Below, one piece after another: positions 909 to 13,005 of a DNA stretch of 13,132 bases. The notes beneath the pieces were generated by a model. The model had not been told where the DNA came from, searched no databases, and worked only from the letters and a program-made list of their open reading frames with translations. The DNA lies in contig CAWAOD010000017.1 in the NCBI GenBank assembly GCA_963783575.1, positions 1 through 13,132 of the forward strand, given 5' to 3'. Position 1 is the first letter of the stretch. Every line of letters begins with the position of its first letter. Source of the stretch: an uncultured Spirochaetota bacterium (GTDB lineage: Bacteria; Spirochaetota; Brevinematia; Brevinematales; JAOACQ01). The position numbers were made by a program, and so were the translations under genes.

Positions 909-1313
909 CTAAACAGTATTACTTTGTCTTTTTACTCGCTTAGCCCTTCTAGCTTCCTTAGCGGCTCGGAAAGCGGCTCTCTGTTCCGGAGTCGGCCCTC
1001 CGTGAGTTTTTTCTACGATGGGTATTCCTACTCTCTTCCGCAACGCTTTGATGTACACTTCTTTAGATGGGCAAGAGCCTCCTATAAAATTACAAAGATG
1101 TATTACCTCTGCCCCCTTCTCTTTGAGTCTTTTAGCCTTCTTTACGATTTTATCGGCTTTACCCTGGTTGCATCCCCCACACGTATCAAATCCAACCAAT
1201 TCGATCTTGTCATAGCGGCTGAACTCCCCGGTTTTATTATCTATCGCCTTAAAACAGTTCCAACCCGCACACTCAGCGCTACGCGCGTCACAACGTACAA
1301 TTCCTATTTTCAT
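909..1313 (-). CDS. CGGC domain-containing Cys-rich putative metal-binding protein
   Basis: Intact ORF MKIGIVRC...ECAGWNCFKA...VGFDTCGGC...IHLC...CP...IVEKTH is the typical CGGC-domain (PF08821) layout. A GGAGG RBS upstream of ATG 1313 favours this start over 1334. Confidence 0.9.
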   Translation of the reverse strand: MKIGIVRCDARSAECAGWNCFKAIDNKTGEFSRYDKIELVGFDTCGGCNQGKADKIVKKAKRLKEKGAEVIHLCNFIGGSCPSKEVYIKALRKRVGIPIVEKTHGGPTPEQRAAFRAAKEARRAKRVKRQSNTV

Positions 1314-1412
1314 CGCTGGTTTTTTACCTCCCATAATTTCGATTGGCTATTATGATAGCATGAAAAAACAGGAAATGAATATATATTTCCGACGCTCTTT
1401 GGCAAATTTGCC

Positions 1413-3082
1413 CTAATACCTGGCATATGTGGGTACTATGTCCTTGTATTTAGCCACCAGTTTATCCCACTTTTTAGGAAGTTCTATTTTTTCCGTGGCG
1501 ATACTGCCACCGGAAACCATTCCCAAATGGGCCCCGAATCCGCCGAGCACATAAATCTGAACCGGGTCAGGTTCTTTAGGGACTGCCTGGAATATCGGCA
1601 GCCTGTCCTCGGGATTCTGTTTGGCTCTTTCTTCCGGGGACAGTGAATAGTAAGACTGACAGATGATCCCGGGGCGCAATAGCATTCTTGATAATATATT
1701 CCTTGATGGCTTTCTTGCTCCAGCCCTTGCTGGCCAGGGCTTTGGCATTGCTCGGGGTTAAAAGTACACCGAAGATTCCAATATGCAGGGGCGCCGCATT
1801 ATAGCAGATGCTCTTGAGAATACCAATATCATCAATCACATAGGGCATAACATGTTGATAGGTCTGTGGGAAAGTCAAAGTAACGGCGCTGTCCTCTTTC
1901 TTTAACCCTCGCTCCACATGCAGAGGTTCCCAGGGGCTGTTCTCTTCATTCTCTCCGGCTACCCAGCTATATTTGCCAGGGTTGCCCAGCAGACCCATAT
2001 CCTCCATGCCTTTGCGGATTCCCCGGATGTTCTTGGTAATCAGGCCCATCGCCCGGCCGATGGCCGCATTGGCGATATCTCCGGGATTCATGGCGCCATA
2101 GCTGCAGTTCACATGAATATCCTGGCGAATCGGGCCGTTAATAAGCCAGAAAGGGGACAAACGAGCCGGTGCTGGCGGCCATCATCACTGCGGTGCGGTT
2201 GGAGACCAGGGCTTTGGTTCCGGCGATCAATACCGGCAGATGGGTCGGCAGAGCACCCGGCCATGACGGCATTAACGGCAATCCTCTCCACGGTGGCTTT
2301 ACCCAACCGCGGCTCTAATTTGTTGACCAGGTAATCCGGCAGGCAGGTCGGTCCCGGTGAGCATTTCCGCTACGGCTTCCTCGGTCGGCGGAACTATCGG
2401 CAGGCCGTCCGTCCAGCCTCGTTTGTAAAAGAATTTATTGTACCTCCTCCAGGTTACCTTTAAAGGCGATCCTCTGGGGAGTTCCGATCTCTTTGGGCTT
2501 GGGAGAAGCTTCCTCGGCAGTCAGAGGACGGGTCAAGCCGGTAATGACGTTATCGATCACTTTTTCGATCGCCGGTTCAATCTCCTCCATGATGGTACAC
2601 TCGGAAACTATCGGTCTCCGGGACAGCCTGATCTGGGGCATACCGTGGGAAGAAGCCCCCGAATAGGCATCATTGGCGAAATACTGGAAAACCAGGGAAA
2701 CCGTGGGTTTACCTCTGGATTCGATAAAAATGCTGTCGTACACAAGGTACTTGGTGCAGGCGCCTCAGTCACCCACCGCGGCGATGACTGCATCCACGCT
2801 CTTAATCCAGTCTTCAAACTCCTGACGCCGGTCTTTTTCCAGATCGGAAACCGAGAAAGTCTTGCCCCGGAACCAGACTGAACTCGGCGTCAGGATACTT
2901 ATTCCGCAGTATTTTTTCAATTACCGTCAATATCGGCTCTGCCGCCCGCTTGCCATTACGCAGCAGGCCGATTTTCTTACCGGCCAGGTCGGTAATGCGG
3001 GGGGTCAGTCCTTTAAGGGAATCGGGTCGGCTTCTGCCCAGGGACTGAGGACTTCATACATGGCATTGGATTTGCTTGCCAT
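1413..3082 (-). CDS. Selenoprotein A: UGSC-like (U-G-A-C) redox-motif protein fused to a large uncharacterised domain, ~555 aa; several apparent sequencing frameshifts
   Basis: AGGAG RBS (3091-3095) and ATG 3082. Stitched: MASKSNAMYEVLSPWAEADP...DLAGKKIGLLRNGK...EFEDWIKSVDAVIAAVGD-TGA(2767-2765)-GACTKYLVYDSIFIESRGKPTV...GMPQIR...LTRPLTAEE...FYKRGWTDGLPIVPPTEEAVAEML...GKATVERIAVNAVMAG...NGP...ANAAIGRA...GNPGKY...ENEENSPWEPLHVERG...TYARY, TAG 1413-1415. Co-linear with the paralog at 4023-5601. Confidence 0.85.
2735..2767 (-). promoter_or_regulatory. Sec UGA codon and candidate bacterial SECIS hairpin (selenoprotein A)
   Basis: mRNA UGA GGCGCC UGCA(C)CAAG UAC CUUG UGUA gives an 8-bp stem with one bulged C and one G-U pair, starting 7 nt after the UGA. 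Folded by eye. Confidence 0.55.
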
Positions 3083-3093
3083 GATTCTGACTC

Positions 3094-3967
3094 CTATTTG
3101 TTATTTATCTGGTTAAGTGCGTCGTAGACCTTTCTCAAGTCCAATTCGGTCATAAAATGAGTAATGGGGGTTTCGGCCCCAGACTTCCTCAGCCAGTTCC
3201 AGAGCAGTATCCCGGTCCTTATCGTCTATAGTTTTTAGTGGGGCTTTCCCCGCGGGTGCTGGTGCGGTCGGTGCCCTCCGCAAGCGCCTGACCAGGACAT
3301 TCATGCCTATGCTGCGACCAGTGCTGACATTGATGGCAGCCACCATCTGATCGAAGCGTAGTCCGGCTTTAACTCCGATGTTTAAACATTCACGAGAAAA
3401 AATCTCATTTCCATATCCTTGCAGATTGTTGATCAGCTTGCAGACCTGCCCGCTTCCAATACCGCCCAGGTGAAAAATGTTTTTGCCTAAAGCTTTAAAC
3501 ACCGGCATACACCGCATTACCGCCTCATCATCTCCTCCTATCATGAGAGTTAAGGCTACCGATTCCTGCCCGGGTGTGAAATTCCGGCTTTCAGCGCTCA
3601 CCGGCGCATCAATTACATAGACTCCCTTTTCTTTTCCCTGTGCATATAACTTACGGCAATAACCCGGGCTTATCGTACTAGAAATAATAAGAGTACTCCC
3701 CTCTTTTACTCCCTGCCAAACTCCATCAGGGCCGAAAATAACCTCATCATTTTGATGCTCATCACGGACCATACTAAAAATAACATCGCTGGCGGCGGCC
3801 ACTTCACGGGATGATCCGGCTGAGGTCGCTCCCAGAGATACCATCTCAGATACAGCTTCTTTCCGCAAATCATAGACTACCAGATGTTCTCCGTTTTTGG
3901 CCATATTCTTGGCCATGAGTATGCCCATGTTGCCCAGACCGATAAAGCCTATTTTTAAAGAACTCAT
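3094..3967 (-). CDS. NAD(P)-dependent oxidoreductase, beta-hydroxyacid dehydrogenase (3-hydroxyisobutyrate/tartronate semialdehyde reductase-like) family
   Basis: GFIGLGNMG Rossmann motif, SSTISP, DAPVS, LMIGG and GSGQVCKLINN (catalytic Lys). A likely frameshift near 3180 gives the C-terminus ...GAETPITHFMTELDLRKVYDALNQINNK-TAG(3094-3096), which overlaps the next gene's RBS. The uncorrected ORF ends at 3113. Confidence 0.9.
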
Positions 3968-4022
3968 ATTTATTTCCTCTAGTTTTCCTTTCCCCGGAGA
4001 GTTATTTATTTACTGCTTTTCC

Positions 4023-5601
4023 CTAACGACCGGCCTGAGTAAGGGTGGCCCCATGGATCTTCTTTATCACATGGGCATTGGTATCCAGCATGACCCACAT
4101 CACGGTATATCCGGGCACCCCTCCGGCTACGGCGATATGAATATTTTGTTTCAGCACTCCGGTTTTTTCCTCCAGCCATTCTCGGACACTGTCCCTATTG
4201 AAGCCCAGTTTGTGGAGTTCCTTATGGATTTCCGGGTTAATTACAATGTAAACTCCGCCTCTCCGGGGCATCCTTTCAGCCAGCCATTGGTCTAAGATTG
4301 ACTGGGCTTTCCAGAGACCGACTGCGCCTCCGCCAAAAGTAGCATAAACGCTATTGACCTTGGTTACCGTAACGCAGCTATCCTGTTTACTGAATCCACG
4401 GCTGACGTGAAAGGGGTCCCACAACTTAGTTCTTCATTTTCCGCGAAAGTGTACCACGTATGTGCTGAGGGGCGACCGGTCAAGGCCATGTCATTCTCTC
4501 GGGGCCAGCAGTCCCCGATATTGAGAGTGCTCAACCTGACGGCGCGTCCGATGGTATTATTAGACCGCCAGCCGTGGCCCAACAGGCCGATACCCGAATT
4601 CATGTTGATTTCAGTGGCAATGGAGCCGTCTACCATGATTACCAGGTTGAAGGAGCCCGATGAGCCAGGGTATTAAAGAATCTTTCACCGTCACCGCCGG
4701 GACCGTTTTCTCCCACAAAGCTTTCCATGGCTCCGATGATTACCGGTAAATACTCTGGCTTAGCCCCGGCCATAACGGCGTTGATGGCAACCTTCTCAAT
4801 CGTGACGGTACCCCACTTCGTGGGACATTTCCCTAAGACTTCGTCCGGGGAGCGATTAGTGCCCTTTAGCATCCACTTGACTCGCTCCTCCGTGGGAGTT
4901 ACCGGGGCAAGCCATCACCCATATTATTTTCCAGAAAGAACTCGTTGAATTTCTCTAAAGCCTCGGAGTAAGTTTCCCCGGTTATTGAATATTCCGCCGG
5001 CCCGATGTCAGCCTTCTTAGGTTTGGGGGGATTAGCTTCTTCAGGCGTCAAGGGACGGGTCAGGATATCGATGATTTCTTCAATAGCCCCTTCGGCTACC
5101 GGTTGCACTCCTCCGGCGTCCTTCGCAGGTTATACCATTTATCCGAAGGTAAGGCTACCGGGCGTATTTTCGGCATTCCCCAGTCGTAGGCTGCCGACCG
5201 GGCATCGGTCATAAAGTTAGAGCTAACGAAATAGGCTCCCGGTAGGCCCCGCTTCTCTAGCTCGGCTGTGTGGTCGGAACCCCACCACATACAGGTGCCT
5301 CAGTCTCCGGACCCGAAATAAAGGCGTAGGCTGATCTGGCGACCTCGTCATAAAAGGCCGGATTCATAGCCAGGTTGACCGTGGTGGTAAATTGTTTGAC
5401 GAAACTGAGGGTAGGATACCTGGATTTCAGCAAGGCCTCCACGGCATCCATAAAAGTACTGACGCCGGGTTTGGTGTTGCTAACCAAAGCGATTCTCTTA
5501 CCTGCTAAATCGGGAAACCTGGCAGCCGGGGCGAACATTTTCTTGGCCTCAATATCACCTTTAGGATTCCGTAGTAATAATTCAACCTTCTGTGGACTCA
5601 T
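4023..5601 (-). CDS. Selenoprotein B: UGSC-like (U-G-T-C) redox-motif protein fused to a large uncharacterised domain, ~525 aa; several apparent sequencing frameshifts
   Basis: AAGGAG RBS and ATG 5601. Stitched: MSPQKVELLLRNPKG...RFPDLAGKRIALVSNTK...SAYAFI(F)GSGD-TGA(5302-5300)-GTCMWWGSDHTAELEKRGLPG...WGMPKIR...LTRPLTPEE...MGDGLP.VTPTEERVKWML...VTIEKVAINAVMAGAKPEYLPVII...SNNTIGRA...TGRP...ENEELS.WDPFHVSRG...AGR, TAG 4023-4025. Confidence 0.85.
5264..5302 (-). promoter_or_regulatory. Sec UGA codon and candidate bacterial SECIS hairpin (selenoprotein B)
   Basis: mRNA UGA GGCAC CUGU AU GUGGU GG GGUU CC G ACCAC ACAG CC. CUGU/ACAG, GUGGU/ACCAC and GG/CC pair around a GGUU apical loop that begins 18 nt after the UGA. 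Folded by eye. Confidence 0.7.
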
Positions 5602-5686
5602 CAGTTACTCCTTCACACTATATAGCATATTCATCTGTACCCGGAAGTGATATCTGCTCTCCGGGCACTTCAACCGAAATAATAGA

Positions 5687-7304
5687 CTACTTAGCTTTCT
5701 CCATCCAGGCTTTTTCCGGGGTCCAGACTGTAAAGTGCCCCGAGGTAAGGAGCCCATGGTCATGAAGACCTTTCTGGAGAACATCTAACGTGCGCACCTG
5801 TATAGATGGGTATGATGGTGGCATCGTCATACATAATCTTGACTAATTTTTGACACAGTGATTTCTGAGTATTGTAGTCTGTCGCCACCAGAGCACTATT
5901 AAGGGTGTCCTGGTAATTGTCCGGTCTCTTCACACTGTTAAACTGGATAGAATTAGATGAGATATAGGCATCCATGGTGGCATCATAATTGGGAGATTCG
6001 GCAAACATACAAGAGACCAGAGCATTTTTCCATCCATTGGTCCTTATATCGGTATATTTTGCCGCATTCACAATATTAATTTGGGCATCGATTCCCACGG
6101 CGCTGAGATAGGCCTGTATCGACTGGACCGCATCCTTATTGTAGGTTTGCGGGTCAGGTATAATCGTGGTCGCAAACCCATTGGGATAACCCGCTTCTGC
6201 CAGCAGTTGCTTGGCTTTTTGCGGATCATAGGTGCGTCCTACGATATCTGAGTTATAAGCCATACCATTTGGTATGGTAGCCTGATAGTTGGCACTCCAA
6301 TAACCATAGCCCAGAGTTTTGGCCATGGTGGCTTTGTCAATAGCATACTCTTACAGCCTGGCGCACTTTCGGATTAGCAAAGGGGGAATCAGCGTTTGCA
6401 CTATCAGGAAGCAATGTGGCATACCCATTAGGCTGGTTGATGACATCATATCCCTTGGCTGCCAAATCAAAGGCTGTCTTGACATCCGCGGAGCTGATTA
6501 CCTGCCCAGCTCCGGTCTGGAAAGATGCCGCACGGGTCATCGTATCCTGTATGACAGTGTCTTCTATTGCGTCAAGATAGGGTAGTCCCTTCTGCCAGTA
6601 CCCGTCAAATCGGGCAAATTTGAGAGAAACATCCCGGGCAAAACTGACAAATTTAAAGGGGCCGGTACCCACCGGGTTCCACCGGGCCCAATCTATCCCT
6701 TTGGTATTGTAGGCAGTGGGTGAGACGAACACATCACTAACTGCCATTGAACCCAGAATCGAGTTCTGATATTGTTTTAAGTTTACTTTGACCGTGTAAT
6801 CATCCACTACTTCTACTGAGGTAAACTGACCGGTTCCGGGCTTTTTGGCTACCATAAAAGCATCAATGTTAAATTTGGCCGCCTGGGCATTCCAATCGGT
6901 GCCATCCTGGAACTTGACGCCCTTCCTTAAATAAAATGTTATCGATTTCCCATCCGGAGCGACTTGCCAGGATTCAGCCAGGCAGGGAATATCATGTCCG
7001 GTGAGGTCTTCGTTAACCAGGACCTCGAGACAGGGCCTGACCATTGGCGTGGATGCGCCTATAGCTTCTGGCGGCCAGCCGATAGGAGCGCTGGGACCGG
7101 TTACTACGAGTATTTTTAATGTCCCGCCATACTGGGGCTGGAGTGCTGCTTGGGTGGGAGCAAGCTGGGTGCGGCACTCGACTGGGCGCCGGTAGCTGCG
7201 GCAGAGTTCGTGGTTGCCGACGGTGAAGAGCAAGCTGCAGCCAGCAATAAGGTCAACACAATTAAGATCAATGCTCCTAAATAAATGACTGGTCGTTTAT
7301 TCAT
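5687..7304 (-). CDS. ABC transporter substrate-binding lipoprotein, family 5 (DppA/OppA/NikA-like); frameshifted
   Basis: Signal peptide with lipobox MNKRPVIYLGALILIVLTLLLAAA-C followed by a Ser/Thr/Ala linker. Motifs PQYGGTL, LAESWQVAPDGKSITFYLRKGVKFQDGT, PVGTGPFK, YWQKGLPYLD, KVRQA and YDPQKAKQLLAEAGYPNGF. After a final frameshift it ends ...WTPEKAWMEKAK-TAG (5687-5689). AAGGAGG RBS upstream. Confidence 0.92.
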
Positions 7305-7636: not shown

Positions 7637-8953
7637 ATGCCAACAGATAAAACTCAAGGCCAATCGGCTAAAGATAAGAAAATAGTGGAAGAAATTGAAA
7701 GAAAGCATGGGAAGACCCCGGCACAGCTCTTTGAGGAAAGGGATAAAAGAGTCCGGGACGCCATTGCCTTGAAGGAACCGGACAGAGTGCCGGTACTCCT
7801 GGGCGAAGGCGTGTTTGCGGCTAAGTATTCCGGACTACCGCTCTCGGCGATGTATTACGACCTGGCAGCTTTCCGTGACGCCTGTCGTAAAGCGTTCTGG
7901 ATTTCGAGCCGGACCTATGCCAGGCAGGCGTGGGCGGCAATTCCGGCAAACCCTGACACTTCTGGAAACACGTCACCAGCGCTGGCCGGGAGGAAACCTG
8001 CCCCCGAATATCCCCTATCAGTTCGTAGAAGGGGAATACATGAAGGTTGAGGAATACGACCTCTTCCTGAATGATCCCTCTGACTTTACCCTGAGATACT
8101 ATCTGCCGAGATTGTTCGGTGTATTGGCCCCGGTATCCAAACTTCCGCCCTTAAGGACACTTTCCAGCGGCGGGGTCCCTGCTATCGTCAGCCTGTTTGC
8201 TACCCCGGAATTCCGCAAATTGGGTGAAATATTGTATCACGCCGGTCAGGAGCAGGCTAAAGCGCTGCTGGCCGCGAAAGGAGCTGAAGAGGAAATGAAC
8301 CGCCTAGGATTCCCCACCATGAGGCTCGGTAGGGGCGTAGGCGCCTCCCCCTTCGATTCCATTGCGGATAATTTAAGGGGTATGCGCGGGGCCATGCTGG
8401 ATATGTACCGCTGCCCGGACAAGCTCCTGGCTGCCTGCGAAAAAATTTTGCAGTGGCGCATCGCCGGAGCCTACCCCGGCTGATACCCTGTATCCGGCAG
8501 GACCCGCCTGGTCTCACGTCCTCTCCATAAGGGCGCCGAAGGCTTCATGTCCCTGAAGCAGTTTGAAAAATTCTACTGGCCGACCTTAAAGGCCGCCGTT
8601 ATCAAGGATATTGAGCTGGGCTATACTCCCCGGCTGGGCTGGCAGGGGAAAGTGGACTCCCGCCTGGAGTATTTCCTGGAGCTCCCAAAGGGAAAGTCGT
8701 TTGCTGGTTTGAGCATACCGATATGACCAAGGCCAAGGCCGTGCTGGGCAATCACATCTGCATCGCCGGCAATGTCCCTGTTTCCCTGCTTTGCTGCGGC
8801 TCGGCCCAGGACGTCGATGAGTATTGTAAAAACCTGATCAAGGTCTGTGGCAAAGGCGGCGGCTTCATGCTTACCAGCGGCGGCGCTATGGATGACGCCA
8901 AGCCGAAGAATGTGCGGGCCATGGTCGAATCGGTCAAGAAGTATCGTCCTTAA
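7637..8953 (+). CDS. Uroporphyrinogen decarboxylase / methylcobalamin methyltransferase (URO-D/CIMS-like) superfamily protein; frameshifted
   Basis: Stitched: RVRDAIALKEPDRVPV...QFVEGEYMKVEEYDLFLNDPSDF...SPFDSIADNLRGMRGAMLDMYRCPDKLLAAC...PLHKGAEGFMSLKQFEKFYWPTLK...ELPKGK...TDMTKAKAVLGNHICIAGNVPVSLL...GGGFML...NVRAMVESVKKY. These are typical URO-D-family (PF01208) motifs. Not assignable as true hemE. Confidence 0.88.
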
Positions 8954-12071: not shown

Positions 12072-13005
12072 TCAATCATCGGTCTTCGTTAAAGATTGAT
12101 AATATAGATAATTGTCGCGTCCCAATTTCTTGACCACATACATGGCCGTATCAGCATGTTTTATGAGCGTTTCCAGATTTTCTCCGTCTTAGGATAGACT
12201 GCGATTCCAAGACTAACCGTAATCTTTTTGGTTAAGCCAGACACGTTAAATGGCTTCCTTAAAACACCAAGTATCCTTTGGGCAACCTCTTCGGCCGATT
12301 CTTTCAAGCCCATCTCGGGGATTAAAACGGAAAATTCATCGCCTCCCATGCGACATATAGATCGGTCTGGCGTAGAATACCTGCGAGCCGGCAACCAACT
12401 CCTTTCAATATTTGGTCACCTGCTTCATGTCCCAGGTTGTCATTAATGTCTTTGAAATTATCCAGGTCAAGCATCATTAGAGTTGTTTTTTGTTTATAAC
12501 GATTGCTTGCGGCTATGGCCATATTAAACCTATCACTGAACAATGTGCGGTTAGGTAAACCGGTGAGAGAATCATGATAAGCCAATTTCTTGATGGTATC
12601 TTCCGCTCTTTTGCGTTCGATAGCATAGCGTAAAGATCGCACTAATAAATTGCCGTCAGTTTGCCCTTTGATGAGGTAATCTTGAGCCCCTTCCCGTATT
12701 GCTTTGCGCGAGTCCTCTTCATCTTCGAAACCCGAATAAATTACCACAGGGATATCCGGTACTTGATGATTTAAGTTGAGGAAAGTTTCAACGCCCAGGC
12801 TATCCGGCAAATTAAGATCTAATAATATAACGTCCACTCTTGCCTCAATAGCACTCTGGATCCCTGCTGACAGAGTGTCGGCGGAGTTAACATGAAAACG
12901 GGTGTAGCTGGTCTTTTCCAACATACGTTTCGTTAGTATCAGATCTGAAGGGTTATCTTCAATTATGAGAACCTCAGTAGGTTTTCCAGACTTTTGAACA
13001 TCCAT
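12072..13005 (-). CDS. Response regulator receiver - diguanylate cyclase (REC-GGDEF); frameshifted
   Basis: REC: VLIIEDN, ILLDLNLPD, GAQDYLIK. Linker LAYHDSLTGLPNR. GGDEF domain: LDLDNFKDIND, GHEAGD, RQTD (RxxD I-site) just before RMGGDEF, ITVSLGIAVYP, ADTAMY. TGA stop at 12072-12074. Confidence 0.92.

Follow-up and report, generated by a model that had tools for sequence, protein, structure and literature searches.

The reductases for glycine and for D-proline both work through a selenolate that forms a Se-carbon bond, which a thiol then resolves to leave a selenenylsulfide (PMC10298544). A UxxC motif is given for both GrdB and PrdB (PMC13188914). The UGSC-containing selenoprotein family was published by Zhang et al. 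(PMC1976440) and ranked fifth by frequency among the selenoprotein families of an ocean survey, with 255 sequences; the fusion of a UGSC domain to a second domain, Unknown_1, is already published in that survey (PMC2398784, Fig. S1A). UGSC is listed as predicted and uncharacterized (PMC13188914). In the literature that contains both UGSC and selenoprotein, a body of openly searchable text with subscription journals largely outside it, no function is reported, and the phrase 'UGSC family' is absent among the matches listed from 2018 onward.

Here, we analyze the window, a whole 13-kb contig (13,132 nucleotides) that carries two such genes (Table 1). A sequence-only reading had singled out a TGA codon in one of them as selenocysteine; it was right about the codon and missed the known UGSC family, the 556-codon fusion to which the codon belongs, and a rival hairpin that is in register and better supported across the family. 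The selenocysteine call is one more member of a family catalogued since 2007-2008. Copy 1 resembles the published UGSC proteins in its G-D-U-G-x-C site, in passing the Pfam cut-off, in the TGA at the selenocysteine (Sec) column and in the fusion to Unknown_1, but its motif is U-G-A-C rather than U-G-S-C, and its SECIS loop is CUUGU rather than A-GUN-U.

Table 1. Features of the window discussed in the text; nt numbers count the TGA as 1-3.
Feature	Position	Strand	Remarks
CGGC-domain gene downstream of copy 1	909..1334	-	PF08821, 91.6 bits
Gene copy 1, UGSC fused to Unknown_1, ~556 codons	1413..3082	-	9 single-base indels; intact orthologs
SECIS-like stem-loop, in register, nt 18-30	2738..2750	-	4-bp stem, CUUGU loop without consensus G23
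Alternative hairpin of the sequence-only reading, nt 10-29	2739..2758	-	RNAalifold consensus of 15 subfamily sequences
Cys of U-x-x-C, predicted resolving Cys	2756..2758	-	Cys in 43/66 relatives with a residue in the column
In-frame TGA, predicted selenocysteine	2765..2767	-	Motif G-D-U-G-A-C; U102 in numbering of ortholog L020
NAD-dependent beta-hydroxyacid dehydrogenase-like gene, between both copies	3113..3967	-	PF03446
Paralog (copy 2), same fusion, frameshifted	4023..5601	-	TGA 5302-5300 in G-D-U-G-T-C; G23-U24 loop hairpin

The in-frame TGA and its gene

As the sequence-only reading held, the TGA at 2767-2765 lies in frame on the minus strand, in AVGD-U-GAC. Upstream, the frame reads W-F-R-G-K...V-D-A-V-I-A-A-V-G-D for 36 codons from 2875; downstream, it continues as G-A-C-T-K-Y-L-V-Y-D-S-I-F-I-E-S-R-G-K-P into the open reading frame at 2435..2743. 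The 36-codon open stretch is genuine, but its upstream limit is a one-base insertion near 2878 and not the start of the gene. At the other end, the stop at 2437-2435 comes after another insertion, near 2439. The TGA does take the first position of a UxxC/CxxC-type motif, U-G-A-C, with its Cys at 2758-2756. The window has three instances of the pattern TGA-GGN-NNN-TGY, two of them inside UGSC genes (2767 and 5302), and the window's list of open reading frames is normal under table 11.

We hold with high confidence that this TGA is read as selenocysteine, a reading supported by the family, the TGA column, the Cys homologs, the conserved stem and the Sec machinery in ortholog genomes. The name 'selenoprotein A' that came with the original call, if it meant GrdA, is the wrong label, since GrdA has CxxU and the window protein UxxC (PMC13188914, Table 1). 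GrdA (PF04723) was rejected as a candidate on this motif, and PF24696 is the sole match at E <= 1.

Copy 1 runs from an ATG at 3082 to a stop at 1413 and comprises a UGSC domain (~3060-2530) followed by Unknown_1 (~2470-1413). As assembled, it is not translatable, with eight single-base indels relative to its closest relative and one more relative to a paralog. Compared with L019 across the TGA, copy 1 has 51 codons unchanged, 18 changed synonymously and 6 changed non-synonymously, and genes elsewhere on the contig that are unrelated to UGSC are split as well, for example a family-5 binding protein in two open reading frames. Because the substitutions are mostly synonymous and unrelated genes are split too, the nine indels are probably assembly errors. 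Copy 2 has an intact ortholog in L074.

Family membership and the residue at the Sec column

Read through the TGA, the window fragment scores 66.5 bits against the UGSC model (Pfam PF24696; cut-off 25), and intact orthologs score 91-98. With the NCBIfam model NF041046, 'UGSC family (seleno)protein', the fragment scores 58.8 bits and the intact fused orthologs 77-85, all under the cut-off of 125, compared with 164-174 for standalone UGSC controls. By these sequence scores, the fused branch is well within the Pfam UGSC family despite falling under the NCBIfam equivalog cut-off.

The sequence-only reading expected Cys or TGA at this column in homologs, and both were found there. The four closest loci, all from Dehalococcoidales (61-85% identity), have TGA at the column (4/4); L020 and L022 contain the complete gene, an uninterrupted frame of 556-560 codons apart from one TGA, and the remaining two are cut by the ends of their loci. 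A search with a hidden Markov model (HMM), with stops masked, placed TGA at the Sec column in 49/49 distinct sites from 53 loci, which had been chosen for their top-ranking matches and are mutually related. Among 151 sampled Dehalococcoidia genomes, 60 are UGSC-positive, and each of the 150 matches listed, from a total of 305, has one TGA. Some of these genomes hold at least 21 copies. Seven of them (G037, G039, G081, G148, G094, G131 and G055) have 17 to at least 21 UGSC matches each, a large expansion of a single family.

Of the 63 full-length representatives that reach this column, 31 carry Cys, the others having Ala (10), Ser (9), Gly (3), Thr (3) or another residue (7); they come from 147 aligned of 150 representatives at 50% identity, a set biased against Sec forms. 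Homologs with a non-Cys residue here had been put forward as evidence against selenocysteine. Of the 63, 32 are of this kind; TGA is found in all 49 Dehalococcoidia sites sampled. Judging from the alignment, the residue is dispensable in many paralogs. In several full-length fused proteins (P0140, P0144, P0153, P0157 and others), Sec is replaced by Ala, Ser or Gly and the second Cys is kept; it is possible that such relatives are inactive or single-thiol subunits. In public gene calls, 11 of the 14 relatives matched end at A-A-V-G-D, that is, at the TGA codon, and 116 of the best 120 matches to the full ortholog start directly after it.

The RNA element downstream of the TGA

A hairpin had been proposed 7 nt downstream of the TGA. 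It can be drawn at 2758-2739, but on its own the sequence folds no better than shuffled versions (z +0.67 for the first 63 nt past the TGA and +0.61 for the first 40, not significant). The support for an RNA element here comes only from comparing homologous sequences. In 42 sites from a motif-based search, which missed 7 of the 53 loci, 166 of the 168 cells of the stem 18-21:27-30 are paired; this stem ranks at the top of 76 axes, the next reaching 0.74, and shows compensatory exchanges (T-A/A-T/G-C, A-T/G-C/C-G and C-G/G-C). Over the 49 sites of the HMM search, it is complete, with 4/4 pairs, in 42.

The register of this family hairpin is that of the E. coli fdhF type, whose SECIS places its upper stem at nt 15-31 and has a loop containing G23-U24 (PMC8659212); in copy 1 the loop is CUUGU and position 23 is a U. 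G23 is present in the loop at 32 of the 49 sites, including window copy 2, and the other 17, copy 1 included, have a U at this position, in a CUUGU loop with no G at its first two positions. G23 is thought to be essential for SelB binding. One locus, L063, has a CUUGU loop on a family-type stem.

In the 15 sequences with K-Y-L-V, the codons of the element are frozen (AAG, TAC, CTT and GTG each in 15/15, the final TAC in 14/15), and outside the element the codons for conserved Ala, Val, Gly, Pro and Ser residues vary. For these 15 sequences, RNAalifold chooses the nt 10-29 hairpin, with eight pairs, none broken and none compensatory, at -3.3 kcal/mol; this structure has a G-U at the loop and a spacing of only 14 nt. 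The two hairpins are mutually exclusive. Given the family-wide register and the combination of loop and stem in L063, we tentatively favor the in-register hairpin as the better supported of the two by family-wide sequence comparison.

The bSECIS consensus comprises four criteria, to which exceptions exist (PMC13188914, Fig. 2A). The in-register hairpin agrees with the consensus geometry, having a 5-nt loop (3-9 nt), a 4-bp upper stem (4-16 bp) and an 18-nt spacing (16-37 nt), but its loop, CUUGU, has no G at position 1 or 2. The minimum free energy is -8.8 kcal/mol for 63 nt and -5.5 for 40 nt, against a threshold of <= -7.5 kcal/mol, and neither hairpin agrees with all four criteria. The frozen element with its CUUGU loop offers a ready test of how strict SelB recognition is. 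In L078, the hairpins of two tandem UGSC genes fit the family register less well, with 2/4 and 3/4 pairs.

Origin of the contig and the Sec machinery

In the window's bin, which is 89.85% complete, none of selA, selB, selD or tRNA-Sec was found above cut-off. Taken by the letter, this speaks against the call, as the sequence-only reading had said that the lack of Sec machinery in a complete genome would; however, the contig appears foreign to the bin. Its GC content is 0.491, versus 0.371 +/- 0.030 (maximum 0.454), and its tetranucleotide correlation is 0.63, versus at least 0.76, the reference in both cases being 188 equal-size chunks from five large bin contigs. UGSC was found in 0/30 relatives. 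At the DNA level, the contig has many matches in the Dehalococcoidales genome G001 (84% over 1682-3059, 70% over 4030-5504 and 65% over 1880-3949) versus two short ones in the bin's congener. The bin contains lpxC; Dehalococcoidia are not known to have LPS. From composition and homology, the contig is probably mis-binned and derives from a Dehalococcoidales bacterium, which would account for a selenoprotein in a bin without Sec machinery. Such cases deserve a warning, since a mis-binned contig puts a selenoprotein into a genome that lacks this machinery. Another contig of the same bin, C7 (49 kb, GC 0.52), is also a compositional outlier.

The four ortholog genomes encode tRNA-Sec with a UCA anticodon (4/4, one each at E <= 1e-8), selB (4/4), selA (3/4) and selD (3/4, each with its own in-frame TGA). 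Across the larger sample, 54 of the 60 UGSC-positive genomes have tRNA-Sec, compared with 49 of 80 UGSC-negative ones (of 91 negatives, 80 were tested), a modest association among genomes that are related and non-independent. Dehalococcoidia are among the selenoprotein-rich genomes in BSepDB (PMC13326102).

Predicted structure and kinship with GrdB and PrdB

An AlphaFold2 model of the intact ortholog L020 has a pLDDT of 94.5 and a pTM of 0.94, and it places U102 at the start of the helix that follows the third of five strands. Among the structural matches listed, the best are parallel alpha/beta domains of flavodoxin-like or Rossmannoid type at Z ~9-11, with no clear winner (for example, Z 11.2 with an rmsd of 5.0 over 140 residues and Z 10.0 with an rmsd of 2.5 over 112). 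No thioredoxin-fold protein appears among the best ~50 matches listed for the whole model, and when alignment A1 was searched against the sequences of solved structures, no match fell under E 0.013.

Profile comparison points to a relative with known chemistry. Using hhalign, the UGSC domain aligns with 17 GrdB-type sequences at a probability of 96.4% (E 1.4e-9), Sec on Sec, over 87 columns; with the motif removed the probability is 90.1%, and reversed, shuffled and four unrelated controls give 0.05-12%. The GrdB-type set comes from Dehalococcoidia and consists of the 17 of 24 frames kept by a motif filter; the probability is 84% when the 7 spurious frames are included. Standalone UGSC proteins match TIGR01917 and TIGR04483 weakly (E 4e-4 and 8e-4), and the fused orthologs L019 and L020 have no match to PF07355, TIGR01917 or TIGR04483, for which nothing rose above cut-off. 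L074 scores 10.4 bits against the betaine GrdH model and standalone UGSC proteins 15-20 bits, with cut-offs of 65-800. This homology over ~87 columns of sequence argues for kinship with GrdB and PrdB and does not specify the reaction. The shared Sec region has the form strand-U-G-x-[CT]-helix-E-x-x-G-x-P, as in GrdB (PF07355) and PrdB. The window protein differs from them in having Sec near its N-terminus (residue 102) rather than after ~350 residues, and in being fused to Unknown_1. The GrdB-type selenoproteins of Dehalococcoidia in L079-L094 mostly continue as U-G-T-[S/G/D]-T-R after the TGA and not as U-x-x-C.

We assigned the C-terminal domain to Unknown_1 by eye, from the motif A-x-N-x-V-M-A-G-C-x-P-x-Y-M-P in Fig. 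S1A of PMC2398784. UGSC and Unknown_1 lie in one intact frame in L020, L022 and L074, and the window copy is broken by its indels. Unknown_1 has many near-invariant residues and a conserved Cys (A-G-C; Cys272), counted in 112 of 147 relatives and, in another count, in 73 of 140. Taken alone, the domain has no Foldseek match at E <= 0.001, its best structural hit being Z 5.4 with an rmsd of 2.5 over 73 residues; poor matches of this sort do not demonstrate a new fold. Its profile gave no alignment with the one GrdB-type template used (probability 0.4%), and a feature search of the ESM Atlas with Unknown_1 returned no usable match, a result that says nothing on absence or novelty.

A possible function and its alternatives

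The homology of the UGSC Sec region to GrdB and PrdB leads us to propose a cycle of the GrdB/PrdB kind. For insertion of Sec, SelB would bind the hairpin 18 nt after the UGA and deliver Sec-tRNA. In the cycle itself, the selenolate, placed where the helix following strand 3 begins, would attack a small organic substrate held by Unknown_1, the presumed substrate-binding half, to give a Se-substrate bond. The Cys three residues after Sec would free the product and leave a Se-S bond, which a thiol or thioredoxin-type system would re-reduce, possibly via the conserved Cys of Unknown_1 (A-G-C). That the Dehalococcoidales UGSC/Unknown_1 protein is a Sec-dependent reductase of GrdB/PrdB type is a tentative prediction, to which we give a little less than an even chance, and we are similarly guarded about GrdB-like substrate chemistry overall. 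A broader version seems to us possible but rather unlikely. According to it, UGSC/Unknown_1 proteins would form an undescribed class of selenoenzymes, made of a single chain and independent of pyruvoyl, for the reductive cleavage of C-N, C-O or C-S bonds in the manner of glycine and proline reductase, present in at least 21 copies in sediment Dehalococcoidia for different substrates, and one branch would recode UGA without G23. No pyruvoyl proprotein of GrdE/PrdA type was found in the 99 open reading frames scanned of 165 neighboring ones, within short flanks.

Sec might instead be inserted into a general oxidoreductase, acting on thiols and disulfides, on peroxide or in sulfur relay, and lacking carbon-heteroatom chemistry like that of GrdB. 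A UxxC motif is typical of thiol oxidoreductases, Zhang and Gladyshev assumed such a role and a thioredoxin-like fold was proposed for the UGSC protein (PMC2398784), and a thioredoxin-reductase-like gene follows two tandem fused paralogs in L078. The flavodoxin-like parallel alpha/beta folds of the best structural matches and the alignment of the Sec region with GrdB and PrdB run counter to this, and the presence of at least 21 copies per genome beside varied catabolic genes suggests different substrates; we consider a general oxidoreductase a lesser, though serious, possibility. It is less probable still, and on balance improbable, that Sec binds a metal or Fe-S cluster as a ligand, or has a regulatory role, in an enzyme that is not redox-active and has its catalytic part in Unknown_1. 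In keeping with such a role, half of the full-length relatives lack Cys or Sec at the column, Unknown_1 has its own conserved Cys and near-invariant residues, and its weakest tier of structural neighbors includes Fe-S fumarate hydratases (Foldseek E 1.3e-3, TM 0.24; in a second comparison Z 4.8, rmsd 3.8 over 83 residues). These fumarate hydratase scores, however, do not rise above background, all of the sampled Dehalococcoidia sites have Sec, and homology to the catalytic site of GrdB points to a nucleophile.

Two further explanations deny that selenocysteine is made from copy 1 at all, and we regard each as very unlikely. If the TGA were a true stop between two genes, as the split in public gene calls and the non-consensus hairpin might suggest, it would divide one predicted domain, with strand 3 on one side and the following helix on the other, and yet the Cys homologs are full-length and continuous. 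A reading as Cys or Trp has a precedent for Cys in the UGA-to-Cys tRNAs (tRNA-ReC) of some anaerobes (PMC13582414); against this, as against a stop, stand the tRNA-Sec(UCA) and selB of all four ortholog genomes and the TGA-containing selD of three. Copy 1 could also be dead, either as a pseudogene in its own host or as DNA transferred into the low-GC organism of the bin, which would be unable to make Sec. Its nine indels, the further ones in copy 2 and the lack of Sec machinery in the bin would fit this, but unrelated genes of the contig are split too, the substitutions are mostly synonymous, and the contig is a stand-alone outlier in GC and tetranucleotide composition. An intact single-chain fusion such as L020 makes a tidy target for biochemistry, and the homology to GrdB and PrdB tells what to assay.

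Gene neighborhoods

The neighbors of UGSC genes fit a role in organic catabolism, as far as their sequences indicate. The beta-hydroxyacid dehydrogenase family represented between the two window copies also adjoins UGSC genes in L068, L075 and L076; short-chain dehydrogenases are found near those in L020, L022, L074 and L076, and family-5 binding proteins or permeases near those in the window, L019, L021, L022 and L078. Further neighbors are an aldehyde ferredoxin oxidoreductase and a thioredoxin-reductase-like gene, the scan covering 99 of the 165 neighboring open reading frames listed. The latter gene is in L078, after two tandem fused UGSC genes (3195-6442). The CGGC-domain protein of the window is Cys-rich and may bind metal or have a redox role. 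Apparently frameshift-split genes in the rest of the window encode a family-5 solute-binding protein (5760-7304, minus strand), a URO-D/MtaA-like methyltransferase (7637-8953, plus strand) and a receiver-GGDEF protein (12161-13005, minus strand).
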